Made by a program: the position numbers and the translations under genes. Below the pieces are notes generated by a model. The model saw only the letters and a program-made list of their open reading frames with translations, searched no databases and was not told the DNA's origin. Source: Chrysochromulina tobinii (Eukaryota). From it: DNA of 34,806 nucleotides. This document shows, piece after piece, positions 1,402-34,806 of this stretch (position 1 is its first letter; every line of letters begins with the position of its first letter). The stretch spans positions 1-34,806 of the forward strand of contig JWZX01002066.1 in assembly GCA_001275005.1 (NCBI GenBank), written 5' to 3'.

Positions 1402-4400
1402 ATGTCGGCACGCAACGCGAACGCGTGTGCTAGCAGTAGCTATGCAGCCATCTCATCGGCCGCTGGTAGCAGCAGCAGCGGCGCTGGATCGAGGCCAGGG
1501 AATCAAGCTATTTACGATGAACTGCTTGCAGATTTCCTGAGAATGGGTTTTGAGTACAACTCCATCGAGCGGGCACTTCTCACAACCAACATTAGCGACA
1601 CGGCCTATGAGTGCTCTCGCGATGCTTGTCTCGCCATGCTTCTAGGTGGCTCGGGTGAACCTTTCATGTCGAATGCCGACGAAGGTCCTGTGCAGAGCCT
1701 CATGGACCTGACAGGCTGCGACGCACGCGAAGCAGCAAGCGCGCTCGAGCGCTGCAACGCGAATGTGTCCGAGGCAGCCGAGCTGCTGTTCAGAGATCTG
1801 GAGGATCTCGAGTCCGAGCTTGCGGCCCTGCGCATCGCGGATCTTGAGACGGTGCGAGTCTCAGAGCGCGCAGAGGCCGAAGCGCGTGATGCGGCGCTGG
1901 CGGAGGAAATCGAAGCGCGAGAGCGACAAGCACTCGGAAACGGTGCCTGCTGCACCGCGCTCGCGTCAGATGCGGCGCTCGCTGCCGAGCTTGCCACGGA
2001 GATGCATGCAGAGGGAGCTGTTGCGTCAGATGCGGCGCTCGCTGCCGAGCTTGCCACGGAGATGCATGCAGAGGGAGCTGTTGCGTCGGATGCGGCGCTC
2101 GCTGCCGAACTCGAAGCGCAGATGCATGCAGAGGCGCGGCAGCATCGTGCGCATGCGGAGGCCCGCATCGCTGACGACGAGGCGCTGGCGGAGGTGTCGT
2201 GGAGGCTGTCGATGGCAACGACGGCATCGGAGGCCGTGGAGGCTGCGCTGCAAGAGCACTCGTCAGCCCTCTTTGCTGCCGAGCTTGCGGAAGTGGACGC
2301 CGAGGGCGCGGTGCGAACGGAGCGCCGTCTCGAGCAGCAAGCGGAGCAAGTCGAGGCGTGGGAGCTGTCGGTGATAAGTGCCCGCGAGGAGCGTGCTCGG
2401 CAGCTCGGTGCAGTCTCCTCCGAGTTGTCGGCGCGCCACTTGGCGTATGCGCAAGCAAGGCAGCGGTCCATCATTAACGGTTACGCTGAACGCGTCGAAG
2501 TGGCGACGCTCAAGCTGCATGCATTCATGGGCGATGACAGCCAGAGGGTGCTCGACCTGAGTCGTTTGAGTGCACCTGGGCGGGCCCGCATCGAGGCGCT
2601 CGCTGCAGAGCTGTCCTCGGCGTCGTCAATGCGGCTCCAATGCACTGTCGATCACAGCGGTCCCGATCCCGTCTTGCGCATTCGCAAACGGACTCGACCA
2701 CCGGGCACAGCCTTGCCAGCTGCGACGCCAGCCAAACCGCCGGCCGCACCGCCAGCAGCCGACAGACTGGCAGCGTCCGGTGAGTCGCTCCATCTGCCGT
2801 ACAACAGCCATGTGAGCAGTGCCGGCTACACCAGCAACTTGCGTGTGGTGGGCGCCAGCAATGCGTCGCCCAAGTCTCTGGCTGCTGCTTCTGCTGAGAC
2901 AGAGCCGTCGTCACAGAGCTGCGCTCAGAGCACCGCGGCAGCGCCGCAGCCGCAACATCAACAGCCACGCCCACCAGCTCCGCCGTATGGCGACGTGCCG
3001 CTCGGCGTCTGGTGCGCGCTGCACGAGCTGCCGTTTCGTGTCAAGTACGAGGTCGAGGTACTTGTGGGGCTCAAGAAGATGGTGCGATGGGCGCTGCTCC
3101 CCGAGGCGTTTGTGCATGAGCTGCTCAAGTGCGTCGCCGAGGATGGCGAGGCCGTGTGCGTCTCGGTGCTGCGCAAGATGCAGGCAGAGCCCCTGCAGCC
3201 CGTGCTCGACTGGTTCCGGTCAGCGCGAGAGAGCTGCAGTACGCTACGATACGTGAACTTCTCTCCAGGGGTGCTTCATCAGCGCCCTTTGTGGAGCACG
3301 CTGCGCTCCGTCGAGGTACTACGGGCGGTCCATTGCTGTCCTAGTGGCAGGACAATTGCCCGCCCGGCCGAGTATCAGTCGTCCAACCGCGTGCTGCGGC
3401 TTGTCGGAGACCTCTATGGGACGGACCATTTGCTACGTGTCTCCTTCGTCAACGACGGTGTGCACACGCCCATCACGCTTCGCGGCTTGCACTGGGGGGG
3501 CGGTGAGGCGACGCCTGCGGCGGCGCGCGCCACAATCGCACGCTGCTGGCGCGAACGGCGGCTCGCGAGACGCGGCGGTTCGCAAAGTGTGGCGGCACGC
3601 AGCAGTGATCTCGACACGGTGCAGCGCCCACATTCCACGTTCCACGTACCACATTCCAAGTGGGAAGCTGTGAGTAGCGCGCTGCGTGACGGGCTGTGTG
3701 TCGGCGGCGAGCTTTTCCGATGGCTTGCGCCTTCCGCCTCCCAGATGAAGAAGGGAGGCATGTGGTTCGTGCGCGAGTCCGAGCTGAATGCCGCCCTGCT
3801 TCGTCGCTGCTTGGGCGACTTTAGCAAGCTCGCGACCCCGGCTCTCTATCTGGCGCGACTCGGCCAATGCCTTTCGTCGACGTATGTGTCGACGACGATA
3901 CAGCAGGAGGAGGCTTGGGACATGGAGGAGGTAGAGGACGTTGTGAGTGAGTCGGGCGAGATCTTCTCTGACGGCGCTGGATTCTGCTCATACAAGCTCC
4001 TTCAACTGCTCTTCGACTCACTGCACCGCCCGCCTCCCCAGAGCAGCGATCCGCCCCACCTTCAAACCCTCCTTGAGCGGCCGGGGAGTCGCCTACCATA
4101 CTCTGCGGTACAGGTGCGCTGCGGAGGCCGAAAGGGGGTGGTGGCCCTCCGGATGGGCACCGAGGGACGTGTCTTGTACACGCGGCCCTCGATGCACAAG
4201 TTTGATGCGAGCATTCGCGAGCTCGAGGTTTGTGAGTGGGCCACGTGGCACGCGGGCTACCTCAATCGGCCGCTCGTTGCGCTGCTCGAGCACCGCGGCG
4301 TGCCGTATGCTGTGCTGGAGCGCTACCAGAGCCAGTACCTCCGCGAGCTTAGTCAGTGCCTGACGAGCCAGCATCACGCCGAGCGGCTGCTTTCGAGCCT

Positions 4401-6198
4401 TGTTGGACTCATCGTCAAGGGCGGCGAAGCTGGTGTCGATGGCGTCGATGGCAGCGACGGTGACGCCTGCGGTGGACCACTTGGCACGGCACTGACGCTT
4501 TTGCGGCATGGTGTGCCCCTCGAGGAGCCGTTCGTGGCCGGCCTCTTGCGGTGCATCCGCGCTTCGCTAGTGCGTGGCGTCGTCGACAAGGCGCGCGTGC
4601 TCGTGCCGGAGGCGGCGACGCTGATAGGGGTGATGGACGAGGAGGGGGTGCTTGAGTACGGTGAGGTCTTTTTGCAAGTCCAGCCGCCGGATGCCCCCGA
4701 CGATGCGGGGCCACAGGTGATAGAGCAGAATGTCGCCGTCTACCGCAGCCCTGGCAAGCACCCAGGTGATGTACTTGTGCTTCGGGCAGTGCATCATCCA
4801 GCGCTCTGCCATCTGATCAACGTTGTCGTCTTCCCGCGCGTTGGGCCGCGCCCCCATCCTTCGGAGCTCAGTAGTGGCGACCTCGATGGCGACAAGTATT
4901 TAGTCATCTGGGCGCCGTCCATTGTCGACAGCATGCAACCAGCGCCTCCCGTGCCGCCGACTGCAGACCTGTGCCACCGACCGGCGCATAAGCAGCCCAC
5001 AGCAAAGCCAGCTTATAAGCAGCCCACAGCAAAGGCCTTTGCACGCCGCATGCCCCCACTGCCGCCACCGCCACCTTCCGAGCATGCGCTCCTCCAGCAA
5101 GTGGCACAGTGGGAGGTGGCCAAGGCATCGAAGCCACAGCCTGCCACCTTGGGTGACTTTTTGGCTCGAAGCGCACCACGACGGCGCGGCTTGAGCGAGG
5201 GCGAGATGGCCTCTCACGGCAAGATCCTCGAGGCAGCTCGCGAGGCACGAGCCGAGGAGCGCAGACAGCGCTTCCAGATCGAATTGATGCGTCGCATAGG
5301 CGTGGCGGAGGACGCGAGCGCCGTTGCGAGCGCCGTGCACCAGCAGCGGCTGGAGCGCGCGGCCATCCGCTGGTACATCTTCTTTGGCCAGCGCAATAAC
5401 GTCGGGACCATCTCCAACACATGGCTCGTGTACGCCGACCGCTGCGGAGTCGATCATCCGGAGACGCTTGAGCTCTGCCGGTTGGCGCAACTCGCCGTGC
5501 AGTTCGTCAAGACGGGCGAGCCGGTCGAGCTCGACCCGAGGCGCTTCCCCCCTCACGCTGCGCGCCCAGACTTCATGGCGCCCTCGCACACCGGCAGCGG
5601 TGAGGGTGAAGGACGGTATGTGTCTCAGCGCGCGCTCGGCAAGCTGCATCGAGCCGCTGTCGAGGCGACCACCGCAGAGGCCACACCCGCAGCTGCCGCC
5701 GATGCATTGGTCGCCTCTTCCCTCCTTGCCCAGCAGCTTCATGCCGCTGGCTTTGAGGTGCACCTGCCCGCGGCGAGGGCAGCACGCGACGCGTACAATG
5801 AAGAGGTTGCGTGGCACCTCGCAATGTACGGTGTAGCGACGGAGGCAGAGCTCCTTAGCGGGCGAGTGGTCGCATTCGAGCACGATTGGGTGGCGACCGA
5901 TGACTCCCAGGAGGCCGAAGAGGCACTACGCCGCTCCATCCACGCGCTGTGGGCCTGGGCGCGCCGGCGATTCCGCGTGGACGTGGAGGCGGCAGTGAGC
6001 GCTGCTCTACCAGCAGACGATGAGAGTGGTGGCGGCGGCACCGGCGAGAGCACCGCGACCCTGAGGCAACGCATGACACGACAAGTGGCATATGCGTGGT
6101 ATTCAGCGGGGAAATGGCTCGGGGAGGAGCCACCCATCAATGATCGCCTCGCGCTGCATTCGTTTGCGTGGGTCGCGTGGCCGTTGCCATATCTATAA
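1402..6198 (+). CDS. Cellular (RNAi-type) RNA-dependent RNA polymerase, ~1598 aa, with N-terminal UBA-like x2, MIU-like repeats and an R3H-like domain
   Basis: Uninterrupted ORF, first ATG at 1402. RdRP motifs in the expected order: SNRVLR, SASQMK, ARLGQCLSST, FSDGAG, QVRCGGRKG, RPSMHKF, LIGVMDEEGVLEYGEVF, RSPGKHPGD, VVVFP, SSGDLDGDKY (DLDGD at 4879-4893), then VGTISN and PDFM. Confidence 0.93.
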   Translation: MSARNANACASSSYAAISSAAGSSSSGAGSRPGNQAIYDELLADFLRMGFEYNSIERALLTTNISDTAYECSRDACLAMLLGGSGEPFMSNADEGPVQSLMDLTGCDAREAASALERCNANVSEAAELLFRDLEDLESELAALRIADLETVRVSERAEAEARDAALAEEIEARERQALGNGACCTALASDAALAAELATEMHAEGAVASDAALAAELATEMHAEGAVASDAALAAELEAQMHAEARQHRAHAEARIADDEALAEVSWRLSMATTASEAVEAALQEHSSALFAAELAEVDAEGAVRTERRLEQQAEQVEAWELSVISAREERARQLGAVSSELSARHLAYAQARQRSIINGYAERVEVATLKLHAFMGDDSQRVLDLSRLSAPGRARIEALAAELSSASSMRLQCTVDHSGPDPVLRIRKRTRPPGTALPAATPAKPPAAPPAADRLAASGESLHLPYNSHVSSAGYTSNLRVVGASNASPKSLAAASAETEPSSQSCAQSTAAAPQPQHQQPRPPAPPYGDVPLGVWCALHELPFRVKYEVEVLVGLKKMVRWALLPEAFVHELLKCVAEDGEAVCVSVLRKMQAEPLQPVLDWFRSARESCSTLRYVNFSPGVLHQRPLWSTLRSVEVLRAVHCCPSGRTIARPAEYQSSNRVLRLVGDLYGTDHLLRVSFVNDGVHTPITLRGLHWGGGEATPAAARATIARCWRERRLARRGGSQSVAARSSDLDTVQRPHSTFHVPHSKWEAVSSALRDGLCVGGELFRWLAPSASQMKKGGMWFVRESELNAALLRRCLGDFSKLATPALYLARLGQCLSSTYVSTTIQQEEAWDMEEVEDVVSESGEIFSDGAGFCSYKLLQLLFDSLHRPPPQSSDPPHLQTLLERPGSRLPYSAVQVRCGGRKGVVALRMGTEGRVLYTRPSMHKFDASIRELEVCEWATWHAGYLNRPLVALLEHRGVPYAVLERYQSQYLRELSQCLTSQHHAERLLSSLVGLIVKGGEAGVDGVDGSDGDACGGPLGTALTLLRHGVPLEEPFVAGLLRCIRASLVRGVVDKARVLVPEAATLIGVMDEEGVLEYGEVFLQVQPPDAPDDAGPQVIEQNVAVYRSPGKHPGDVLVLRAVHHPALCHLINVVVFPRVGPRPHPSELSSGDLDGDKYLVIWAPSIVDSMQPAPPVPPTADLCHRPAHKQPTAKPAYKQPTAKAFARRMPPLPPPPPSEHALLQQVAQWEVAKASKPQPATLGDFLARSAPRRRGLSEGEMASHGKILEAAREARAEERRQRFQIELMRRIGVAEDASAVASAVHQQRLERAAIRWYIFFGQRNNVGTISNTWLVYADRCGVDHPETLELCRLAQLAVQFVKTGEPVELDPRRFPPHAARPDFMAPSHTGSGEGEGRYVSQRALGKLHRAAVEATTAEATPAAAADALVASSLLAQQLHAAGFEVHLPAARAARDAYNEEVAWHLAMYGVATEAELLSGRVVAFEHDWVATDDSQEAEEALRRSIHALWAWARRRFRVDVEAAVSAALPADDESGGGGTGESTATLRQRMTRQVAYAWYSAGKWLGEEPPINDRLALHSFAWVAWPLPYL
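1963..2132 (+). repeat. 60-nt coding tandem repeat, ~3 copies (ASDAALAAELATEMHAEGAV)
   Basis: Sequence from 1981 and from 2041 is near-identical; the third copy diverges. Confidence 0.95.
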
Positions 6199-18744: not shown

Positions 18745-19230
18745 ATTGGGATGGACCAGTTTGTGTGGGACTTCCCAGCTTGGGTGGTGTGTCCCGGAGA
18801 GGGAGTGGGATGACCCACCGCTGGGTCATCCCACTCTTTCATGGGACGCCCCAGGCGGTTGAGACGTCCCACGCGATGTGGGACGTCCCACGTGGGTGGG
18901 CTGTCCCAGTTTGGCTGGGTTGTCCCATTTTGGCTGGGGTGTCCCAGTTTGGCTGGGGTGTCCCAGCTGTGGGTCATCCCACTTTGAAGCGAGCTGTCCC
19001 ACGCCAAGTGGGCCGTCCCAGTGCCCTGTGGGACGTCCCGCGTGGGTGGGCTGTCCCAGTTTAGCTGGGTTGTCCTAGTCTGGCTGGGGTGTCCCAGCTT
19101 GGCTGGGGTGTCCCAGCTGTGGGTTATTCCACTTTGAAGCGAGTTGTCCCACGCCAAGTGGGCCGTCCCAGTGCCCTGTGGGACGTCCCGCGTGGGTGGG
19201 CTGTCCCGGTTCGGGTAGGTTGTCCCGAGT
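18745..19230. repeat. 150-bp tandem repeat (~2.2 copies) built from TGGG..CCCA / TGTCCCA palindromic subunits, with degenerate flanks
   Basis: tgtgggacgtccc starts at 18877, 19027 and 19177 (exact period 150); the copies differ by a few substitutions. Confidence 0.92.
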
Positions 19231-19809
19231 TTTGCTGAGTTCTTGTCCTAGCGAGTTAGAATTGCTAACGTTAAGGGCCATTCACTGTTGAGGTGTTTAA
19301 CACTAACAACTTAACAACAATAAGAATTGTTAACAACAACGCTTTAATGTTAAGGATTTTCCCTTCGTAGCTGGTAACCAACGATTTCGAAGGATAGTGC
19401 AACTCCTTATGAATAATTAAAGGAGGGTTAGTTTGAAAACCTGATGGGGAGAGAGGTGGGGACGGTATGAAAAACGTGAGCCTGTAGGGGCTGTTAAAAG
19501 GCTCTGAAATAGCTTGGGACTCGCGCAGAGGGCGTCTCGAGCCCTCTCCTCCCTCCCCTAACTGAGATCTCAAGGTATAGGGCACCTGATTTCTTGATTT
19601 CTTGATTATCCTGATTTCTTGATTTCAACACTTCTGATCATCCCTTGTCGACTTTCGAAGTCACCAAGTCAAATCGAACCGGCTTCTTTGTAACTGTAAA
19701 ACTGAAGAACTAATCTGAAGCGACGTATCTTGCTGAGTACAATTACTGACCGACGTTACAGACGGGGTACATCATGTACATCAGACGGACTACATCATGT
19801 ACACAACAC

Positions 19810-21705
19810 CTAAAAGATACCGTACAGATCCGGCGCCCATATGTATGGCTCTGAGCGCACCTCGCGCTCTGGCTCGGCAAACCTGGGAGGTCTAAACACA
19901 GGCGCGCGGTGCATGGCCGTGTCTACACTCATCACCTCATACTTATTCTGCAAACCATATCTGGTCCTGTACGGCACCTCGCGGTACCCTCCGCTTCGCT
20001 CATCACGTACGAGTGTCTCTGTGCTCGCCCATAGCCAGCGCAGGAGCATGAGCTCGTGGCGCCGGCCGTGCTCATCGACGCATGCAAATGCGAGACATAG
20101 CTCGCCAAACCAGTTGTCCCACCCGATGTCAGTAAACTTCGGGTCTATAGCCACAAATTCGGGGTGCGCGTTGGGTTGATGACCAAAGATGGACGCGTTG
20201 ATGGTGGGTGGGTTTGAACTTTCTCCAGTTTGCTGTACTTTGGGCTGCGAGGGCGGGAGCGAGGGGGATGGTTGGAGGGCTGGTGTGAGCGGTGTGGCAT
20301 GGCTCGCGCAGGCAGTGGTGGCGGCGCGGTGAGTTTGAGGAGACCTGTGCGAGGCGCACCGTTGGCCGCGGCGTGCGCCTGGACTCCTTGGGAGAAACCG
20401 CTGATGTGCTTGTTGAGCATCTTGAGGTGGTAGCCGTGGTTCATCATGAAGTCGAGCGCGATCTGCTCGCCGGCCCTCGGCTGCCGCCACCGACGCACAC
20501 GGGCCAAAGATGCCCGGCGCGACGGCCTTGACGATCGCACGCCCACCCGATCGCGAATGGAAGCGACAAGGGTCCGCCAAGTTGAGACAAGAGCGCGTCG
20601 TAGATGTCGACTGTGCCAGTCCAGTGGTCATTCACCTGGTCGCGTGTGAAGCACTGCAGCGACTCGAAGAACTTCAGATGTACCCTTGACTGGCTGATTG
20701 CGGTGCCTAATTCCATCGCACTGCACTGATGGTTTCTTGCCGCCTCTAGCAGAAGCTGCCTGAGCAGGGCGTGGCTCGGGCGGATGCTCGCCGGCCCTCG
20801 GCTGCCGCCACAGACGCACACGGGCCAAAGATGCCCGGCGCGACGGCCTTGACGATGGCCCACGGGACGACTTCGGCGGCCGCGCCAGGGCCGGGCTCCG
20901 CCCTCGCAATCTCCACGTGGCCCTCGTCATTGGCGGTGGCCACGACCAGGACGCTCTTGGCGGCGCAGGCGGCGGTGAACACGGCGATCCGTTCGGGCGT
21001 CGGGGGCTTCGTGGGGGTGAGGCCTGCGGCTCTGTTGGCGCGCTTGTTGGCGTGCGACCATGGCCACGTGCCGGCCTGCGCTGGCCTTGCTCAGGTGAGA
21101 CTGGGGGCAGGCGCAGCCCCCGGGTTCTCGGCGGCCCCCCGCAGAGCGCCAGAGCCCACCGTAGCTCCCGATAGCCGAGACGAGTTGGTCTGCGCCATGC
21201 GACTGTACTGGAGCATGTACTCTGATAATCGTGATGAGAATGTACGCATCACAAATCATCTCGAAGGTCGAAGCGTGCATCCTGGATGACAGCATGACGC
21301 ACGCGTGCAGCTAGTTGTCCAACATGGCCTTGTACTCGTCGCTCATGAGCTTGCGCGCCTCTGCGCGCTCGCTGCAGCCCATGGCGTTCGTCCAGTGGGA
21401 CGCCAGAGGCGCCTTGGTTGTTTTCCCGATGCCCTCGCGGTCGGTGATGAAGCGCCGTGTGAGCATGTCGCTGATACCAATGGCTGATACGCTGCGCGCT
21501 GCGCCGCGCGCTCGGCCTCCGTGGCCGTGACCTCGCGACGCGACACCTTGGCGACCGATAGGTCGGGGTCTATGGCCGCGCCGTGCAGCACCTTGGCGAA
21601 GATGCGGCAGCCCTCTGCCTCCACATGGTCCCGCGCCGCCACCGTGACGGCGGCGTGCATCCGCACCGTAGGGTGGTCACATTGGCCGGGCGACCAGATC
21701 CCCAC
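19810..21705 (-). pseudogene. Degenerate transposase-like remnant; C-terminus resembles the BAH-like tail of Plavaka/CMC-type transposases
   Basis: Protein-like fragments in several frames with stops and frameshifts. The last segment reads FVAID...WFGELCLAFAC...HELMLLRWL...YEVMSVDTAMHRAPVF...YIW. It is next to a repeat array and lower-GC DNA. Family call is by pattern recall only. Confidence 0.45.
20464..20856. repeat. 72-bp direct repeat pair (20464-20535 and 20785-20856), one mismatch
   Basis: tgctcgccggccctcggctgccgccac(c/a)gacgcacacgggccaaagatgcccggcgcgacggccttgacgat, copies separated by 249 bp. Confidence 0.95.
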
Positions 21706-22075: not shown

Positions 22076-23081
22076 TCACAGGCCCTGTGAGTAGTACGCG
22101 AGCGCCGTGTTGCCGCACGGGTTGACGCCGGGCACGGTGCCGTACACCATGAGCCCACCCCAAAAGCCCGCGAGCGCCTCGCCGCCTGATGAGGGGCGCC
22201 ATCAAGCACAATCAGCGAAACACTCAGTGCAATCAAGTGGGCATCGCGAGCATGCGAGAGGGCTGTGGGAAAGAGGTCGGTGCCAACCTGATGAATGTCG
22301 CACTCAAGCCCAATCAGAGGCAATCAGGAGTCATTAGGGTGAGGTACCCACCACGGTTGCGGCAGATGGCCGCATCCTTGAGCAATTGGGTGTACAGGAG
22401 CTTCGAGCGCGGGTACGCCTTCTCGTCGCCGGCGGCCGGGATGGTGACGAGCCGTTGGGTGCCGGTGCTCTCGTTGAGCGCGAAGAAGAAGCTGTTGAGC
22501 GCCTGCCGTCCTGCCTCCCACGTCGTGTACACCTCCGCCACGTCCTTGGCTGAAGGGCCCGCCACGTTGCCCGTGGTCGCGCCGCGCCGCGCCTGCCGTG
22601 AGAGCTGGAACATGCTCTGCTGGAACTTGTCGAGGGCGGACTGCATGTCCTCGCCGCCCAGGTCGGGCGGGAACGCGAGCGCGAGGATCTTCATCGGCGT
22701 CACGAACTCGCGCTCGAGCCGCGAGACCGATGCCGCGCTGCCAATGTCGGATGACGCCGTGAGCTCGCCGATGCGGTCCCACCGGCCCGGATTGTTGAGC
22801 CAATCCTTGAGCTCAAAAAGGTAAAAGTCTGCGTCCAGCTGCAGCTGCGGCAGATACTGCAGGTACGCCTGCTTCGCCTTGGGCGGGATCTCGTCGAGCA
22901 GCCCGATGTCCGCCTTCTTGAGCGAATTGGGATCGACCATCAATTGCTCGAGCGCGAACGCGGGCGCCGCGGCAAAGGAAGCTGCTGCCATAGCATTGCC
23001 AAGCAGGGCGCGCCGCGTCTGCACGCCGGCTGTCGCCGGCTGCAGCGACGCGCTTGCGCAGAGAACCACCGCGAGCAGCAT
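22076..23081 (-). CDS. Nucleus-encoded thylakoid lumen protein (signal peptide, short transit peptide, twin-arginine signal), 2 exons (23081-22352, 22185-22076), 279 aa
   Basis: N-terminus MLLAVVLCASASLQ...TRRALLGNAMAAASFAAAPAFA has RR, a hydrophobic stretch and an AxA site. Phase-1 GT-AG intron 22351-22186 gives ...ICRNRG|GEALAGFWGGLMVYGTVPGVNPCGNTALAYYSQGL*. Confidence 0.82.
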
Positions 23082-23750: not shown

Positions 23751-24155
23751 CACCATTGAGCCGATTTGTCTTGAATCCATGCTCGAATCGCGACCTACAC
23801 ACGCGCGCTCACGACGGCGCCCCGTGTCGCTACTTAGCTTCTTAGGCGGCCCTCAGGTCCGCACCATTGTGCATTGAGCCGATTACAGTCTTGAATCGCG
23901 CCCTATGTACACACGCGCGCTCACGACGGCGCCCCGTGTCGCTACTTAGGCCCTCAGGTCCACCCCATTGAGCCGATTGGTCTTGAATCGCGCCCTACAC
24001 ACGCGCTCACGAAGGCGCTCAACACCGATCTGTCTCGGAGACGGACGCGCTCACGACGGCGCCCAGTCGCCACTTAGGCCCGCAGCTTGGTCGCCTCTGC
24101 TAGCCGCCCCATCGCTACTTAGGCCCGCAGCTTGGTCGCCTCTGCTAGCCGCAGC
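23751..24155. repeat. Degenerate ~90-120-bp tandem array at the 3' end of the TPR gene, including a duplicate of the stop-codon region
   Basis: attgagccgatt..gtcttgaatc x3; cgcgctcacgacggcgccc x3-4; acttaggcccgcagcttggtcgcctctgctagccgc x2. Confidence 0.85.
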
Positions 24156-26662
24156 TTGGCCTTCAAGACGGTCCCCTCGAGCGCCGTCTTGAGCTGCTCG
24201 CACGCCGCCCCTGCGGCCGTGCTGGGCGCCGTACCGGGCGCACCGCCCGCCACGGCGGCCGCCGCACTCACGGCGGCCGCGGCGGTGGCGAGCGATGCGC
24301 TGGCGTCCTCCGCGGCTGAGAGAGCTGCCTGCGCCTCCGACGCACAGCGTTCGAATGCCTCCCGCGCCTCCGCTGGCTCCGTCGCCTCCGCGCCAAGCTT
24401 CAGGTGGCACGCCGCGAGGTTGTTGCACAGGAGCGCCAGCACCGAGCCTGCCGCGGCGGCCGTGTACGCCGCCGCCGCGGCCGCGCTCGCTGCAGCAGCC
24501 GGCTTGGCCGCCTTTTTGGCCGCCTTGCTCGCCACCGAAGCTGCCGTCTGCGCCACGTCAAGGCGCTTCTCCGCTTCCCGCCGGAGCGCATCGAAGAGGA
24601 AGCTCGCGCCCGGCACGGCGCCGCTCGCGAATAGCTTGCCTGCGCGCTCACGCTCGTCTGCCATCGCCGCCGTGCGCGCTGTCGCCTCCGCCGCCGCTGT
24701 CGCCACCGCCGCGTCGACAGCGCGCGCGTCGGCGACGGCCTCCACCTTTTGGTCCGCCTCCGCCTTCGCCTTTGTCGCCGCCACCGCTGCCGCCTCGGCC
24801 TCCGCCTGCGCCTTCGTCTGCGCCGCCGCCATTGCCTTTGCCTCCGCCCTGGCTTTCGCCTGCGCTTCCGCCTCCGCCTTCGCCATTGCCTTGGCCTCCG
24901 CCTTCGCCTTGGCCTCCGCCTCCGCCTTGGCTTTCGCCTCCGCCTTCTCCTTTGCCTCCGCCTTGGCTGCATCGACCGCGGGCGGCGCCTTGCGTGGTGC
25001 GGGCGGGGGCTTCCCTACTTTGGCAGCTGCCTTGGCAGCTTTGAGCGCCGCCGCCCTTGCCTCGGCCTCCTCGGCGGCCTTCAATGCGCGCTCAGCCGCT
25101 ACGGCCGCCGCGACCGCCGCCTCCTCCGCGGCTGCCGCCTCTGCCAGGGCCGCCTCTGCCGCCTCTGCCGCCTCCTGGTCCTCCTCTTCCACAGCCTCTT
25201 CTTCCACAGCCTCCTCCTCCTCCTCCGGATCCCCACAGCCCTCTTCCACAGCCTCCTCTTCCACAGCCTCCTCCTCCTCCTCCGGATCCCCACAGTCGTT
25301 ACCTGCCTTCGCGCTAGCTGACGCAGAGTACCCCACCCGAGCCACTACCGCCGCCGCCGCCGCCGCCGGCGCTGTCGTCGCCGCTGTCGTCGCCGCCGCC
25401 GCTGTCGTCGTCGCCGCCGCCACCCCGGACGGCACTACCGCCTTGTCCTTCTTCTTCTTCTTCTTCTTCTTCTTCTTCTTTGCATCTGCAGGTGCCTCTC
25501 CGGAAGCTACGTCGCCGTCCACGTCGTCGTCATCGTCTTCCTGTGCGGCCGCCACCTGCCTAGCCGCCACCAGCGCAGCCGCCGCGGCCTGCGCTGGTGC
25601 AGCTGCCGCCTGCGCTGACGCTGCCTGCGCAGGCGATGGCGCTGGCGCCGCCGCCTTCGCAGCCGCCGCCTCTTCCTTCGCTGCCGCCGCCTTCACCTTC
25701 TCCGCCTCCTCGCACGCGGCCTCAATCTCAAGCAGCTTCGCACCGACTTCGGGCATCTCGGGCATCAGCTCCTTCGCGGTACGCATCGAGTCGAGAGCAC
25801 CGGAGAGCTCGTTGGCCTGATGAGCGAGGCAATCAGAGCCCATCAGTTGCTATCAAGGGAGGCCATCGAGAGGTCGAGAGCACCGGAGAGCTCGCTGGCA
25901 TGCAGCCGCATTGTGGGGGAAAGCGTGTGGTAATCAGTGGTGATGAGTGGTGATGAGTGACCTGCAGCCGCAGGCATCCGAGCCTGTAGTGCGCCTTGCC
26001 CCATTCGGGAGCGAGCTCTGCCGCCTCCTCCGCGTCCGCCTTAGCCAGATCCGAGTAGCCCAGCTGTGTGTAGCACACCGAGCGGTTGCCGAGGAGCTTA
26101 GCGCGCTCCAGGTCCGCAATCTGCGTGATCTCGAGTGCCTCCGAGTAGAACGCTCGCGCGGCGGTCAGGTCCTGCTTCTGCATCGCCAGGTTGCCTCGCT
26201 CCTGCAGAGGGAGGGTGAAAGGGTGAGCGAGAGGGTGTGCGAGAGGGTGTCTGGGGTCAACTGATAATGAGACTCGTCAGGGTCATGAGAGAAACACCTC
26301 CGCGCGCAGCTCAATCAATCGCACTCAGTCCGGCACTCAGTACGGCTACCTTGAGTGAGAGGAACATCTCCGCGCGTAGCTTGTCCTCCTCCTGATAGAT
26401 CTTCGCCTGCTCAACCATCGCCTTGCGTGCGACGTGCACCGTGTTGTCGACGATCTCACCCTGCTTCTGCTTCTTCTCTTGCGCTTCCTGCAGGTCTTTA
26501 TTGCGCTGCGCGACGGCAGCCGCCGCCTCGGCCGCGGCCGCCTTGTGTTTCTCCACCTCGGCCAGCTGCGCCGCGAGCTTCTCCTTGGACGCCTGCAGCT
26601 CAGCCAGCATCGACTTCGTCTTCGCGTTCGCGGCGTCGAGCGCCGCAACGTCGAGGGCGGAG

Positions 26663-26697
<35 letters not shown>

Positions 26698-27165
26698 GCC
26701 GCCGCCGCCCGTGCCGTTGGCGGCGCTACCTGGTGGCTGGCTTACTGGGGATGTGAGCGCCTTGATGCTTGCGGCCACATCGTCGATCTCGGCAAGCTTC
26801 CGATCGAGCGCGCTCAACTTCTTCCCTGCACGGCCGGGAAGGCCGGCGCCGTCGAGGAACATGCGCTTGAAATCGGCTGGCTGATCCTGGAGCCGCGCCT
26901 CGAGCTCAGCCATGGCGAGCATGGTGCCCGCTTGATCGCCGCGCTCCTTGGCGGCCTCCACCTTGGCGAGCGCGAGCTTGAGCTCCGGCGGCATGCCCAG
27001 CATCTGTGCAGGAGGCTGCGGCTTTCGGCTATCGTCCTCGTCGTCCGAGTCGACGATCTTGTCGAACTTTTTATAGTCGAGGCCGCCGCTGGCGCGACGG
27101 CGCGCGTTGCCTGTTGTCGAGGAGGCCAGCCACGCGTCGCGGGCGTCCATCTTCGGTGTCGGCAT
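24119..27165 (-). CDS. TPR-repeat co-chaperone-like protein, 3 exons (27165-26350, 26201-25962, 25816-24119), ~917 aa
   Basis: Phase-0 GT-AG introns rebuild a classic TPR: LSLK|ERGNLAMQKQDLTAARAFYSEAL...LLGNRSVCYTQLG...ADAEEAAELAPEWGKAHYRLG. Second TPR-like LLCNNLAACHLKLG near the C-terminus. N-terminal LDYKKFDKIVDSDDED motif; Ala/Glu/Lys-rich coiled regions. Confidence 0.85.
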
Positions 27166-27897: not shown

Positions 27898-30800
27898 TCA
27901 CTTCGTCGCCTTGCTCCGTCCCCAGCCGAACGCACTCATCACTTTCACGGAAGTGACTACGGATTTCGCGGCGTCTCTTACGACGGGCACCGGCCGCACT
28001 TCCTCTGGCACGAGGACCTTCGGCGGCTCATTCGGCGGCGGTGCGGCATAGATCGAGGGTGACGAATGTTCCGATGAAGGTTCTAGCCTTGGTTGCGGCA
28101 TCGATCTGAGATAATTCGCCTCCGCCTCCCTCGCCTTCGCCTCCGCCTCCCTCGCCTTCGCCTCCGCCGCCTTCACTCTCACCAACACAGCCTCCCTCGC
28201 CTCTTCCTGGTTTGAAGCAAACGCCACCACCCGTGGGGCGCGGGGTGGCGGGGGCACCTGTGGAAGGGGCGCGAAGTGCTCGCCTGAACGCTCGGCACGG
28301 CGCTCCGCACGAGCCGCCACAGGCGCCAGAGACACTGAAAGGAGACGAGGGTCTGTCGGCGCCACGGCCGCATGAAGACGCGAGAGTCGGGTGGCCGCTT
28401 GCTCGAAGAGCATGCGCCGGGCTTCCAAGCGAGTCGAAGCAAGGTCACCGAGCACATCCTCAAACTGGTCCACCATCGGCTCATTCGCTTGCATCGGATC
28501 GTCGTCTGGTCTGCCTTCGTCTGCCTGGCCGTTAGCCACTGCCTTGTCCAAGGAGGCCAGGGCGGCGGCGAGGGAAGCCAACGGGCCTCCGCCCTCCTGC
28601 TCACCTTCTTCGATGCCATGCTCGAAGCCTCCCTCGTAGCCGCCTTCGTAACCACCCTCGTAGCCGTGCTTGCCGTACTCGCTCCCCTCCCCTGCATGGT
28701 ACTCGCCCCCCTCCCCTGCATGGTACTTGTCGGCTCCGTGCTCGCGTGGCAGCTCGTGAAACTTCGCGTTCTGCCGGTGGCGCCGTGGCGCGCGTATTTC
28801 GCTGGGGGAGTCTGAAGGCGGGTGGATCATTCTTGCTGACATTTGCCGCACTGCTGACCATGGGCTGGTTTGCAGCAGCAGCTGCATGAGTACTTCCTTC
28901 ATTGCGGCGTGCGCCTGTACCTCCATGTCGGGTGTGCGCCCAGGCCTTTGCGCGTGCGTCGATTGGATACGACCCAAGAGATACTCTGCCGTTGCGCCCC
29001 ACGCCGCCGTCTGCGCCTCGTTGCTCGGGTCGGGGTGTACCTCGAGCAGCTCCAGTCCCGCGCGCTGTCCGAGCAGCCGACGCGCCGTCTCGCGCAGCAC
29101 CTCGTCCGCGTACGGCGCGAACCCCACGTCGACGCGCACGAGCTCGAGCTGCGTGAGCGGCTTGCCGTAGATGTTGAGGGTCGTGGACGGATTGCACACG
29201 TCGCACAGCACATTGACATGGTTTCCAATGAGCTTACGCGCAGCCGCCTCGCGATACTGTAAGGGGTTACCCGCCGCCGTCAAGTCCACAGCTTCACGTG
29301 TAGCTGCCGTCGTCGATCCCTTGCCCAGCGCCTTGCGCAGCATCGCCCAGTGCGGCGCCGTCGCAGCGATGGTTGCGGTCAGGGCCGACTGCCCGACCTC
29401 GGCCAGCACAGCGAGCGTTGCGTTGCCGGCAATGAAGCTCATGTCAGGCTCGCGCCCGGGCTTTTGCTCCGGCGTCGACTGGATTCGGCCGATGAGGTAC
29501 GTGGCGGCCTTGTGCCACGTGGTGCACTGCTCATGGTTGTGCAGATGCAATTTCGCCTCAAGGGCACCTGAACCTGCGCGCTTGCCGAGCAGCCGTCGGA
29601 CTGTCTCCTGCATGAGCTCGTCCACGTACGGCGACAGGCGAGGGTCGACACGCCCAAGCTCGAGCTGCGTGAGCGGCTTGCCGTAGATGTTGAGTGTCGT
29701 GGACGGGTTGCACACGTCGGCCAGCACTTTGTGCCGGTTGCGGAGCAGCCTCTCGGCGGCCTCCTGCCTCGCCATGTGGGGAAAAGGCTTCGCGCGGCCG
29801 TCGGCCACCGAATCAAACCCGGCGCCTTGTTCAATCAGCAATTCGAGACCTGCCCAGACTCGCGACGCGTCGAGATGGGCGCGTGGCCCGGCCACCTCCC
29901 GAAGCACCGCCTTCATCGCCGCCGCGGCGGCAGGAGGCATATCAGGTGTGCGCCCGGGCCTCTCATCGTCCATCGCCTGCAGCCGCCCGCACAGGTAATA
30001 TGCCGTCGCACCCCACGCCGCCGTCTGCGCCTCGTTGCTCGGATCGGGGTGTACCTCGAGCAGCTCCAGTCCCGCGCGCCGTCCGAGCAGCCGACGCGCC
30101 GTCTCGCGCAGCACCTCGTCCGCGTACGGCGCGCACCCCACGTCGACGCGCACGAGCTCGAGCTGCGTGAGCGGCTTGCCTTCAATGTTGGTGATCGGGG
30201 ACGGGTTACACAGATCGCGTAGCACGCGATCATGGTTTCCAATGAGCTTTCGCGCAGCCGCCTCGCGCGCCGCTTGCGAATGAGCCGCTGCAGCGCCCTC
30301 TGCCGGTGCGCCTGAGCTCTCGCGCTCCTCGAGCGCATCTTGAAGCATCAGCCAATGAGGCATCGAGAGCTTGTGCGCCAACGTCAGGCTGCTGCACGCG
30401 ATCTCTTCGAGCACCGCGAGCATGGAGGCCGCAGCCTCGGGGGACATGTCTGGAGAGCGGCCAGGCTTCTGCTCAGGCTTCGACTGGATGCGAGTCTGGA
30501 GGTAGCGCCACACCGTCGCCCACGCGTTCGCCTGCGTCGGATTGTTCATCTCGCAGCGCACCTCGTGCGTCTCGGAACCTCGCCGCGGGCCGAGCAGCCG
30601 GCGCGCGCACTCGAGAAGCGCCTGGTCGGCGTAGATGCGGCTGCCTTCGGGCACGCGCTCGAGCACTTGCTGCGTGCGCGGCTGCGGGTGCGACAGGTCA
30701 TAGAGGAGGGCCTCGTGGTTACCGACGAGCTTGCGCGCCGCCTCCATTCGAGCATCATACGCGTGGGAGGCCGCTACGCCGCACGCCTCAATCTCGAAGC

Positions 30801-31077
30801 CGAAAGACTCGTGCATCTGGGTAGCTTCTTCGAGCATGACTATGAGCGAATGCCAAAACGGCTCGTGTTCGGGGATGCTCGCCTGGGGCGCGCCTCTGGT
30901 GCCGTCACTCCTCAGGCCGTCGCCGTCGACGATGAGGCCTAGCTCCATGGCCGCCCTCAGCTTTCGTTGTGCTTTGGACGTTGGGCCTCCGCTCTCGTCG
31001 TTCATATCCAGCATGGAGCTGATGGCCGTCTGCCATGCTGGTGGAGCCCCAGTGTCGACCATGAAGTCCATGGCCAT
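27898..31077 (-). CDS. Hypothetical 1059-aa protein with four tandem ~120-aa helical repeats
   Basis: Single ORF. Repeat pattern R.EAA.(K/R)L..N...L.D...P...Y.D..L....RRLLG.R.G...W...YL..R(I/L)Q....PGR.PDM...A...VL at ~30750-30395, 30270-29890, 29773-29390 and 29257-28875. Confidence 0.85.
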   Translation of the reverse strand: MAMDFMVDTGAPPAWQTAISSMLDMNDESGGPTSKAQRKLRAAMELGLIVDGDGLRSDGTRGAPQASIPEHEPFWHSLIVMLEEATQMHESFGFEIEACGVAASHAYDARMEAARKLVGNHEALLYDLSHPQPRTQQVLERVPEGSRIYADQALLECARRLLGPRRGSETHEVRCEMNNPTQANAWATVWRYLQTRIQSKPEQKPGRSPDMSPEAAASMLAVLEEIACSSLTLAHKLSMPHWLMLQDALEERESSGAPAEGAAAAHSQAAREAAARKLIGNHDRVLRDLCNPSPITNIEGKPLTQLELVRVDVGCAPYADEVLRETARRLLGRRAGLELLEVHPDPSNEAQTAAWGATAYYLCGRLQAMDDERPGRTPDMPPAAAAAMKAVLREVAGPRAHLDASRVWAGLELLIEQGAGFDSVADGRAKPFPHMARQEAAERLLRNRHKVLADVCNPSTTLNIYGKPLTQLELGRVDPRLSPYVDELMQETVRRLLGKRAGSGALEAKLHLHNHEQCTTWHKAATYLIGRIQSTPEQKPGREPDMSFIAGNATLAVLAEVGQSALTATIAATAPHWAMLRKALGKGSTTAATREAVDLTAAGNPLQYREAAARKLIGNHVNVLCDVCNPSTTLNIYGKPLTQLELVRVDVGFAPYADEVLRETARRLLGQRAGLELLEVHPDPSNEAQTAAWGATAEYLLGRIQSTHAQRPGRTPDMEVQAHAAMKEVLMQLLLQTSPWSAVRQMSARMIHPPSDSPSEIRAPRRHRQNAKFHELPREHGADKYHAGEGGEYHAGEGSEYGKHGYEGGYEGGYEGGFEHGIEEGEQEGGGPLASLAAALASLDKAVANGQADEGRPDDDPMQANEPMVDQFEDVLGDLASTRLEARRMLFEQAATRLSRLHAAVAPTDPRLLSVSLAPVAARAERRAERSGEHFAPLPQVPPPPRAPRVVAFASNQEEAREAVLVRVKAAEAKAREAEAKAREAEANYLRSMPQPRLEPSSEHSSPSIYAAPPPNEPPKVLVPEEVRPVPVVRDAAKSVVTSVKVMSAFGWGRSKATK

Positions 31078-32080: not shown

Positions 32081-32226
32081 TCTGTGGGAATGCGGCTTCG
32101 TCAACCACCGCCCATGGGCTTGTACTAGTAAGAACCCCCTGGCGACGCCTGGCAGTTTCGTTAATTCATGCGGACCCCTCGATCGCAAAAACAAAGCGAC
32201 TCACAAACGGAGAGTTTACCGGCGTC

Positions 32227-34806
32227 ATGTCGAAGACCGCGACCAATGCGCGGCCCGCCGCGCCCGTTTCGGATGCCGCACGGCTTCGCGCTGCGCGAAC
32301 CAGGGGCAGAGAAACGAAGGCCAACTTGCCATTGCCAATGAGCAAGCCTGAGAATACGAGCGAGGCTCACAAAGGGCACAGCGTCGAGCACAAGCTGGGC
32401 ATGTTCAAGGGCGTGCTCGTGCCCACGTGCGAAAACATGTGGGGCGTCATCATCTTCTTGCGCTTCTACTTGATCGTCGGCTACGCGGGCCTCGGCCTGA
32501 CGATCCTGATCGTGACGCTCTCATTCGGCGTCGCACTGACGACCGCGCTGGCCATGTCGGCGATCGCCACGTGCGGCTCACACACTGCCCATGGTGTCTA
32601 CATGATGCTCGTGCGGGCCCTCGGCAAGGAAATCGCCACGGCTACTGGCATCGTCTACTTCCTAGGGTTCGTCTGCCTTGCTGTCCTAGAGTGCCTCGGT
32701 GCATGCGAGGAGCTCTTTGCGCTTGACGAAACCCTCAAGCTGACCGGGAGCTTCCGCTTCCGCAACTTCGATGTGCGTCTGTGGGGCTCGATCTTCATGC
32801 TCTTCTGCGCCCTCTCCAATTACGCGGGCACCAAGATCGTCTCGCAGATCGGGGTCCTCTTCTTCATCATCGTGCTGTACACGCTGATCTCGTTCTATAT
32901 CTCGCTCATCGGAGCTCCAAATCTCGAGTCGTATGATATGTCGCTCGGGGTCTTCGAAGGCAGCAGCAGCGACGCCATGAGCAGCTACGCCAACAGCAGC
33001 TACACCAACAGCAGTGCCATCAACGCCTCCTACCCCGGCACCGGTTCCGGTATAGTTGGCCGGCGCCTAGCCCCAGGGGGCTACATTAAAGCATCTGGCC
33101 TCTCGACCACCAACTTCTATAACAACTTTGGACCCAATTTTGGTGGCGAGTATGACTTCTCGACGTGCCTCGCCATCTTCTTCCCTTGCTTCACGGGCAT
33201 CCTCTCGGGCGCCAACCGCGCCGCCAAGCTGCGCGATCCGGTAGCTTGATGACACCTGATGACCTCATAGGACCTCTGAGGACACCTCTTGATTGCCTCC
33301 CTCATCCGATAGCTTGATGACAACTGATGACCTCATCTGATCTCTGTTGACAGCTCTTGATTGCATCCTTCATCAGGTGGCTTCGATCCCCGTGGGCACG
33401 CTCGGCGCCATCTGCGGCAGCTACGTCATGTACATGTCCTTCATGTTCCTCTGGGCGGGCGTAGGCTCCCGCGCGTACCTGCAGCAGGACCATGGCCAGA
33501 TCAACACGCTCCTCTATCCCTCGGTGGCTGCCGCGCAGGTTGGCATCCGCAGCTCGAATCTCTGATGACCTCGGATGGCCTCGGATGATCTCTGATGACC
33601 TCGGATGGCCTCGGATGATCTCTGATGACCTCGGATGGCCTCGGATGGCCGCGTCGCAGGTTGGTATTATCGTCTCGAGCCTCGGGCAGGCGATGCAATG
33701 CTTAACAGTAGCCCCGATGCTCCTCGCCTCTATCTCTGCCTCGGGCACGATCCGCTACCTCAAGCCCTTCGCCGTCCTCACTGACGGGGAGCCCAAGCGT
33801 GCCCTTGGCCTCTCCTGGCTCATTGGGGCTCTCCTCGTGATTCTGGGCGAGCTAAACCTGATCGCGCCGCTCCTCTCTATGTAAGCAAGCACCTGAAGCC
33901 GCCTTGCCCAGCATGCGGGCGCTCACCACGGCGCCTTTGCTCATCACGGCGCCCGCGCTTCCCCACAGGTGCTTCCTGTTGACCTATGCCTCGATGAACC
34001 TCAATTGCTTCTTCCTCGACTACCTCAAGGATCCCACCTGGCGGCCCCGCTGGAAGTACTTTCATTGGTCGAGTGGGCTCGCAGGCTTTGTGCTGTGCGT
34101 GACCGTACAGTTCCTCATCGATTGGATCTACGCGATCATTGCGTGGGTCCTGTGGCTCGTCCTCCTCATCTTCATCGTGCGCACCACTGCCTCCGTCGAC
34201 CATCACTCACCACGGCGCCAGATGCTCACCACGGCGCCTGCGCTTCCCCACAGGTGCGCACCACTGCCTCCGTGGACTATGGCTCAGCAATACACGGCCT
34301 GCGCTTTCGCGTGGCTGTCAAGTCGCTCCTCTCGATCGACATGGCCGCGCATTCGGACAATAATTGGAAGCCGCAGCTGCTCCTGCTCTATACCTTGCAG
34401 GTGCTTATTTAACCCTGCTCTTTACCTCTGATGCTCATACCTCTGATGCTCTAAGCCGCTTTCCTATTCCCTGCAGGAGGTCGACCGGACTGCCGATCGG
34501 CCCACGACGGCGCCCACGACGGCGCCCACGACGGCGCCCGAGGACGTCTCTCTTGCCGAAGATTCGGCCAAGTCGCCTAATATGGCAATGAGCCGAGTCG
34601 CCGAGTCGCCTATTATGGCAATGGCGCGCGCGCCCTCGAGGGCGCTCCAGGCCGGCGGCGTGGGTGCTGGCTTGGGCCATGGTGTCCAACACGGCGCCCG
34701 CGTCGGCGCTGTGTTGGGCTCAGAGGATCCACGAGTAGCACAGCTGCGGAGCTTGCAGGCACAGGAGGCTGCGATTGCCGGCGCCGCGGCCGCCGCCCCG
34801 GACGGC
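32227..34806 (+). CDS. Cation-chloride cotransporter (SLC12/CCC family), 3'-partial; exons 32227 (or 32338)-33240, 33377-33538, 33660-33880, 33969-34176, 34254-34400, 34477->34806
   Basis: KLGMFKGVLVPTCENMWGVIIFLRF, FFPCFTGILSGANR...LRDP|VASIPVGTLGAI, LNLIAPLLSM|CFLLTYASMNLNCF, PTWRPRWKYFHW, NWKPQLL. Five GT-AG introns keep the frame. Confidence 0.92.
33241..33376 (+). repeat. Intron made of exactly two diverged 68-nt units
   Basis: gtagcttgatgacacctgatgacctcat...ttgattgcctccctcatccg followed by atagcttgatgacaactgatgacctcat...ttgattgcatccttcatcag. Confidence 0.9.
33559..33650 (+). repeat. Intronic 30-nt tandem repeat x3 (atctctgatgacctcggatggcctcggatg)
   Basis: Directly visible within CCC intron 2. 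Confidence 0.95.

Follow-up and report, generated by a model that had tools for sequence, protein, structure and literature searches.

How can an intron come to contain the exon–exon junction that exists only once that intron has been removed? Outside introner lineages it is, to our knowledge, not known where most new introns come from. The question is raised here by a 145-nt intron in a TPR-repeat protein gene of the alga Chrysochromulina tobinii, carried on the minus strand of a 34,806-nt stretch of genomic DNA (contig JWZX01002066.1, hereafter the window). A sequence-only reading had noticed that 38 consecutive bases inside this intron resemble its own joined exons, and had proposed that they were left either by reiterative duplication with inserted modules or by mRNA- or cDNA-templated repair into the intron.

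An intron that carries a copy of its own spliced junction

The resemblance is real. The intron-internal segment 25873-25910 matches the joined exons 25790-25816 and 25962-25972 at 36 of 38 positions, and similarity ends sharply on both sides. On the minus strand, the two mismatches are a CAG to CAT change at 25900, the final base of the upstream-exon copy, and an A to G change at 25895, base 5 of the downstream-exon copy. When 19,958 random exonic 38-mers were allowed any placement in the 145-nt intron, the best reached 23/38, and in a fixed register none of 19,958 random 11-mers got to 10/11. DNA contigs from two runs (X9 and X11; assembled contigs, not raw reads) cover 25492-26654 with 0 differences, so the 145-nt intron is not an assembly artefact.

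RNA confirmed that 25962 is joined to 25816. Two of three runs (X12 and X14) contain a 145-nt joint with minus-strand GT..AG ends, and its flanks of 26 and 30 nt mean that it extends past the 11-nt inner copy. The third run (X13) has only the unspliced form at 25817..25961, and X12 and X14 contain unspliced contigs as well. The element is a spliceosomal intron that is removed from RNA at its GT..AG ends. The spliced frame of the TPR gene is open, and by eye its length across the junction equals that of homologues P0002-P0004; retention of the whole intron, or of either of the two units described below, shifts the frame into a stop.

Read 5' to 3' on the gene strand, the locus consists of the upstream exon end (X), a GT with a 4-base stub, module A, a copy of the exon end (X'), a copy of the downstream exon start (Y'), module B, and the downstream exon start itself (Y) (Table 1). 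These parts form two units, one of 62 nt (stub, module A and X') and one of 83 nt (Y' and module B), either of which would have made a complete intron while the inner AGs were still intact. The lengths of Y' (27 nt) and of the 83-nt unit fall within the quartiles of the wider family described below (18-29 and 69-83). From its match to the exon start, the stub is likely the tail of a second duplication, and the GC with which Y' starts is possibly a former donor.

Table 1. Coordinates of the TPR-repeat gene, of the parts of its second intron and of a single-unit intron elsewhere in the window
Feature	Position	Strand	Description
TPR-repeat protein gene	24119..27165	-	3 exons (27165-26350, 26201-25962, 25816-24119), from Pfam TPR_8 (1.2e-8), homologues and ORF ends
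Intron 1 of TPR gene	26202..26349	-	148 nt; RNA joint in runs X12, X13, X14 and X15
Intron 2 of TPR gene	25817..25961	-	145 nt, GT..AG; RNA joint in runs X12 and X14; open spliced frame
Upstream exon end (X)	25962..25972	-	Source of the 11-nt inner copy; CAG at end
Donor stub GTCA	25958..25961	-	3/4 bases as in downstream exon start and its copy (GCCA)
Module A	25911..25957	-	10-nt repeats, one branch-like CTGAT, A-type acceptor end with AG reading AA
Copy of upstream exon end (X')	25900..25910	-	10/11; CAG>CAT
Copy of downstream exon start (Y')	25873..25899	-	26/27; starts GC
Module B	25817..25872	-	Branch-like motifs at -39, -29 and -19; acceptor CTCATCAG; high-copy family
Downstream exon start (Y)	25790..25816	-	Source of the 27-nt copy
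Single-unit inferred intron	34177..34253	+	77 nt: 23/24 next-exon copy plus A-type acceptor module

Both spacers around the junction copy had been described as ending in acceptor modules. This holds outright for the second, module B, which terminates in CTCATCAG, the acceptor in use; the first, module A, terminates in CCCCACAA, an A-type acceptor end that has lost its AG and reads CACAA. Module B is abundant, with a summed DNA-contig depth that reaches 1252 in bin 25827-25887, unique bins having 46, and it gave 292 BLAST matches across the window and fetched loci that had themselves been selected by a module-B motif. Module A has only a 19-nt match in the fetched loci. No local source for either module was found within the window; look-alikes lie elsewhere in the DNA run at 49/54 and 33/36, the latter between 25925-25960 and a DNA contig elsewhere in the sample.

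Other introns and features of the window

Intron 1 of the TPR gene contains an exon copy too, with 26286-26311 repeating upstream exon bases 26356-26381 at 23/26. Unspliced RNA contigs occur at both introns of the gene (25817-25961 and 26202-26349), while 19300-20333 and 32225-33258 lack RNA depth; together this weakly hints at intron retention. In the closest homologue of the TPR protein (P0002, 79%), the TPR block is present twice with identical sequence, reflecting either a real duplication or an assembly error. The named homologues of a neighbouring gene are from haptophytes: one is from Prymnesium parvum (57%), the other from an MMETSP record that is Scyphosphaera-like.

For the single-unit intron at 34177..34253, no RNA joint was seen among the rows listed. 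Three further plus-strand introns, inferred with approximate ends, resemble their flanking exons. The one at 33241-33376, in an amino-acid-permease-family gene, consists of two similar 68-nt units, the first of which has, in place of an AG, final bases that resemble the exon end. Those at 33539-33659 and 34401-34476 have 3' ends like the upstream exon end, and the former also starts like the downstream exon and has a 10-nt tandem array inside. Two acceptor ends of one gene (33938-33972 and 34223-34257), 285 nt apart, are identical at 33 of 35 positions including 4 bases past the AG, which makes them a candidate local copy. On the minus strand, 22186-22350 is a composite intron with three consecutive acceptor-like ends; its spliced reading comes from homologues P0016 and P0043, which imply that the donor precedes the obvious GT by a few bases.

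Elsewhere the window contains an intron-free 1598-aa ORF (1402-6198, plus strand) that carries the RdRP domain of eukaryotic RNA-dependent RNA polymerases (Pfam, 2.3e-115) and has a UBA-like match that is weak, a 150-nt tandem repeat (94%) of 19-nt subrepeats within low-GC, apparently non-coding sequence (18746-19226), and an unannotated 1059-aa ORF (27898-31077, minus strand) with three internal repeats of ~300 nt that are 70-85% alike. Rfam gave two weak matches only, far under the gathering score and both outside the 145-nt intron.

Exon copies followed by acceptor modules recur across related loci

We surveyed 134 metagenome loci (798 kb), taken from among the matches listed (~2900 stretches estimated), together with the window. 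The loci were picked by a 19-base module-B motif and so are a selected rather than a random sample, their introns were inferred without RNA, and the survey thresholds were set after the data had been viewed. Motif matches in viral contigs (8) and prokaryote genomes (12) were regarded, on the basis of the record names, as due to chance and were excluded from all counts.

A copy of the next exon start (score at least 10) lies upstream of 116 of 351 non-redundant terminal acceptor modules (98/304 of type B and 18/47 of type A), against 0.11% of 1751 shuffled pairs. This copy begins with GT in 81/114 cases and with GC in 14/114 (95/114 together). A stricter pass yielded 141 units in 75 loci, 116 of them from the culture series plus the window and 25 from other samples; one double-counted unit (L047) is included here and in the 55 units used below to look for module sources. 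Each is an inferred intron or intron unit made of a next-exon copy (median ~23 nt) followed by a repeated acceptor module. Ninety-nine units are simple, 32 are stacked on another module and 10, including 25817..25961, have a full junction copy. An excess over shuffled junctions is present in these motif-selected loci and the window, with 10 of 141 units against a null of 4/4315, and L038, L090, L087 and L027 hold further candidates. Nine other loci of the 141-unit set share the two-step anatomy of the 145-nt intron, and both of its intermediate states are present as separate introns in related loci, which supports the proposal of reiterative duplication with inserted modules.

The CAG to CAT change in the inner copy had been read as the removal of a cryptic acceptor. 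The base change itself stands, and selection for it is plausible rather than demonstrated; among the nine other junction-copy introns, the inner copy still terminates in AG in L035, L052, L064, L085 and L110.

Of 247 repeat-flanked modules identified in an independent scan, 145 passed the quality filters. An acceptor end precedes GT or GC in 53 of these and other bases in 7, AG|GY lies inside the duplication without an acceptor end in 37, a donor-like stub forms the end in 12, and 36 were unclassified. The 37/145 with AG|GY are mirror units, in which the exon-end copy supplies the AG; in 18 of them the second copy is not directly followed by a module. When the AG|GY and donor-like classes are taken together (49 cases), a module does follow the second copy in 28, which means that there the duplication fell across an existing donor.

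Removing the units leaves an open frame in 82/97 cases, compared with 41/97 if they are left unspliced. Copy length falls as module length rises (rho -0.60; median unit 76 nt), which fits the trade-off expected under intron-length filtering. Among units whose copies are shorter than 45 nt, duplications are evenly spread between 10 and 44 nt. Insertion sites resemble splice sites, with G at -1 in 86% compared with 26% of exonic GT, and this could be explained by selection or by mechanism. Donor-improving mutations in the copies show no excess at +2 to +6, and earlier use of GC donors gains no support from them. Units joined back to back at AG|GT with no exon between them occur in L064, L085, L035 and L052 and in the 32 stacked units; by sequence, these joins are candidate recursive-splicing sites.

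Nine strain pairs at other loci revealed no intron-free allele and no presence/absence difference of a whole single unit. They differ only in unit copy number (L042/L088) and in 10-nt repeat changes. As for the window itself, no run beyond the culture series contains it, and the four other metagenome runs listed cover almost none of it, which is not evidence that it is absent there. At L042:1497-1590, a 94-nt copy-plus-module unit is present twice, as against once in L088, in strains that are 6 substitutions apart in 1370 bases.

Order of events and template

Junction-copy introns at other loci bear on both the order of events and the template. In L035, L067, L085, L110 and L090 the stub after the donor agrees with the intron copy and differs from the exon; in L064 it agrees with the exon. 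L087 sides with the majority and, having an indel, is uncounted. In 5/6 clean informative cases the post-donor bases thus follow the older intron copy, and mRNA- or cDNA-templated repair is not supported. In L021, L067, L086, L090 and L038 the exon end lacks an AG, so the donor-side unit there was not an intron alone or first. From these alignments, the usual history would have begun with the acceptor unit, followed by a duplication across its donor, made from unspliced sequence. Since such a second duplication copies the exon end together with the start of the existing intron, no mRNA template is necessary. The initial argument that the contiguous copy needs spliced mRNA or an intronless ancestor accordingly fails, as two stacked duplications yield the same sequence. 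The 145-nt intron is itself uninformative on order, its stub being 4 bases long and its exon end reading CAG, and the reverse order is possible there.

Make-up and source of the inserts

Modules contain on average 1.9 branch-like motifs, compared with 0.1 in the copied part, and have a period of 10 nt. Among 106 modules there are 92 different 5' hexamers and 28 different 3' 9-mers, the latter falling into two main types, and 58/106 end in CCTCATCAG. An A/T run of 6 occurs in 0/106, and there is no poly(A) tail. Inverted matches of 7/7 in the end 15 nt occur in 8/101 modules against a null of 0.4%, a small excess. At the 5' join of the module, microhomology of at least 3 nt is present in 34/121 cases, compared with 7.5% expected.

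Some inserts resemble a nearby intron. The best match of a module is a near neighbour in 9/55 cases against 1.15 expected, and acceptor ends are identical over at least 25 nt in 7/206 near pairs (150-2000 nt apart; one, L044, may be a single compound intron), 0/400 farther or opposite-strand pairs and 71/29,625 between-locus pairs. The seven look-alike near pairs have 4.4 common bases past the AG compared with 2.3 (p 0.00015), which fits an unspliced template. For module similarity of near against other pairs, the unstratified p is 0.055, and by type the values are 0.019 and 0.0006. The over-sharing of acceptor ends and the microhomology at joins point to copying by template switching or break repair, not to a uniform transposon.

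A two-step model and its alternatives

We consider it reasonably probable that the 145-nt intron arose through two successive duplication-plus-insert events in unspliced sequence, with pieces of introns brought in as inserts by template switching. Both events would have struck one exonic AG|GC. The first would have duplicated 27 exon bases and placed module B between the copies, creating an 83-base GC-AG intron with a donor supplied by the duplicate. The second would have duplicated ~15 bases across that donor with module A between the copies, shifting the donor to a new GT and leaving the copies of exon end and exon start adjacent inside the intron. The model predicts that the inserts are fragments of introns already present (acceptor ends and branch-site repeats), often from an intron of the same gene, and copying would proceed by microhomology-guided template switching while a staggered break or stalled fork is repaired. 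Selection would retain only the events that splice cleanly, and both inner AGs would have been lost later by point change. A direct repeat of the adjacent exon is found at the far end of the insert, as gain by staggered break or template switch requires. Intron gain by duplication plus insertion is likely still active in the lineage.

The main rival is a non-autonomous element or a reverse-transcribed intron RNA, and it remains so because the acceptor end is so fixed. Here the anatomy would be the same and the agent different: two insertions of an introner or a SINE-like RNA, possibly excised intron RNA entering by target-primed reverse transcription, each with a long target-site duplication. 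The fixed 3' end, the variable 5' end and duplication length and the 5' microhomology are as in SINE/LINE-type elements; an element or RNA 3' end would also fit the common CCTCATCAG ending and the 7/60 acceptor-ended units that have no GT or GC after them, module B is high-copy, and Chrysochromulina MAGs contain introners according to excerpts of bioRxiv 10.1101/2022.06.06.494994. Clean units are in sense orientation in 37/43 and 16/19 cases, a bias equally expected from selection. We nonetheless judge this explanation unlikely. There are at least two unrelated 3' ends, interiors are mosaic, and poly(A), a common 5' end and a single master sequence are all absent; 85/145 units have no acceptor end by the pattern used (some trimming errors included). 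A free RNA that stops at AG would not be expected to produce same-gene sharing or common bases past the AG, and the introner duplications given in the published portions consulted are 3-8 nt (bioRxiv 10.1101/2020.10.14.339549, 10.1101/2022.06.06.494994).

A single complex repair event, in which several template switches laid down the stub, modules A and B and both copies together, is less probable still. The one mismatch in each copy (1/11 and 1/27) makes their relative ages inseparable, and polymerase theta is known to make templated insertions over multiple rounds (parts of PMC7165422); against this, the stub and the intron copy share a derived base absent from the exon in 5 other loci, which implies time between events, and each half occurs alone in many loci. 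We give very little credence to the idea that a fragment of mRNA or cDNA covering the spliced junction was inserted mid-way into an older intron. The 38 bases would adjoin only once the intron is spliced out or before it was gained, and the TPR gene is transcribed, but such a paste predicts neither the 99 simple introns that start exactly at an exon copy nor the stubs that match the intron copy in 5/6 clean cases at other loci, and both the 27-nt part and the 83-nt unit lie in the family's normal ranges. Chance similarity or an assembly artefact, which a GC-rich genome rich in repeats might favour, can be set aside given the random maximum of 23/38 and the identical sequence of the RNA contigs and of the DNA contigs from two runs.

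Comparison with known routes of intron gain

The two-step duplication model has relatives among described systems, each of which we compare here from the portions of the cited sources that were available. In Daphnia pulex, introns are gained by repair of staggered double-strand breaks (Li et al. 2014, PMC4202315) with repeats of 4-12 bp and AT-rich inserts of mostly unknown source, and successive staggered insertions at one site form a category of their own (legend of Fig. 3F). The alga shares with Daphnia the direct repeat common to new intron and adjacent exon and the successive insertions at one site; its repeats, however, are 10-44 nt long, and its inserts are recognisable intron ends and branch-like arrays, some of them common to a neighbouring intron.

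In the introner-like elements of Symbiodinium and Polarella (bioRxiv 10.1101/2020.10.14.339549) and the introners of Chrysochromulina (bioRxiv 10.1101/2022.06.06.494994; 4 bp in the example), one splice site comes from the target-site duplication. The excerpts describe short duplications of a fixed length per family (3-8 nt), one family sequence and often terminal inverted repeats. As in those introners, the insert here brings one splice site and the duplication the other, in both polarities and with GC donors. Unlike them, the alga's units have duplications of variable length, mosaic interiors and no common 5' end. A duplication that supplies a splice site was thus found, and a fixed duplication length and end-to-end likeness were not.

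Oikopleura dioica has 4 nearly identical within-gene intron pairs among ~75,000 introns, attributed to reverse splicing of whole introns (as cited in excerpts of PMC3879977). Intron sequence is copied locally within a gene in both organisms; the algal introns, by contrast, share only their 3' part, and a long duplication of exon sequence accompanies it. Another listed route of intron gain is the tandem genomic duplication of an AG|GT site (PMC3296678, in part); in our mirror units, likewise, an AG|GY is duplicated and its two copies provide the donor and the acceptor. They differ in that an insert with many branch-like motifs separates the copies, and in the commonest unit this insert provides the acceptor. 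Templated insertions by polymerase theta, as summarised in parts of PMC7165422, are typically 3-30 bp and copied from immediately flanking DNA, with distal templates in <0.1% of repair. The algal units resemble these in repeated rounds and, as an excess across loci, in microhomology at joins and putative local templates, whereas their inserts are ~30-80 nt and the look-alike sources lie 150-900 nt off or farther.

We found no description of this intron pattern in haptophytes in the literature covered, which represents subscription journals and preprint supplements incompletely. The main text of PMC12130899 makes no mention of 'haptophyte' or 'Chrysochromulina', and the accessible part of the Gozashti 2022 supplement has 0 matches to the acceptor motif. 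Relative to simple repeat-flanked introns, what the present introns add is the compound form, the evidence on order and the signal of a local source.

Discussion

The junction copy is real and recurrent, and most likely a by-product of new introns arising by duplication and insertion. It archives the order of events, and the duplication, the insert and sometimes the donor intron are still readable at >100 sites in 0.8 Mb. With culture DNA, RNA and near-identical wild strains, gain by break repair, by a mobile element and from an RNA template can be directly tested against one another. Exon copies inside introns can also misdirect read mapping and gene prediction.

More tentatively, and as a possibility that we rate below the two-step history itself, introns in this lineage may be copied without a transposase, with acceptor ends and branch-site arrays from introns already present, frequently of the same gene and possibly via pre-mRNA, templating repair at breaks that duplicate 10-45 bases. 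If so, introns would seed introns, grow by stacking and make back-to-back AG|GT sites at which recursive splicing might take place.
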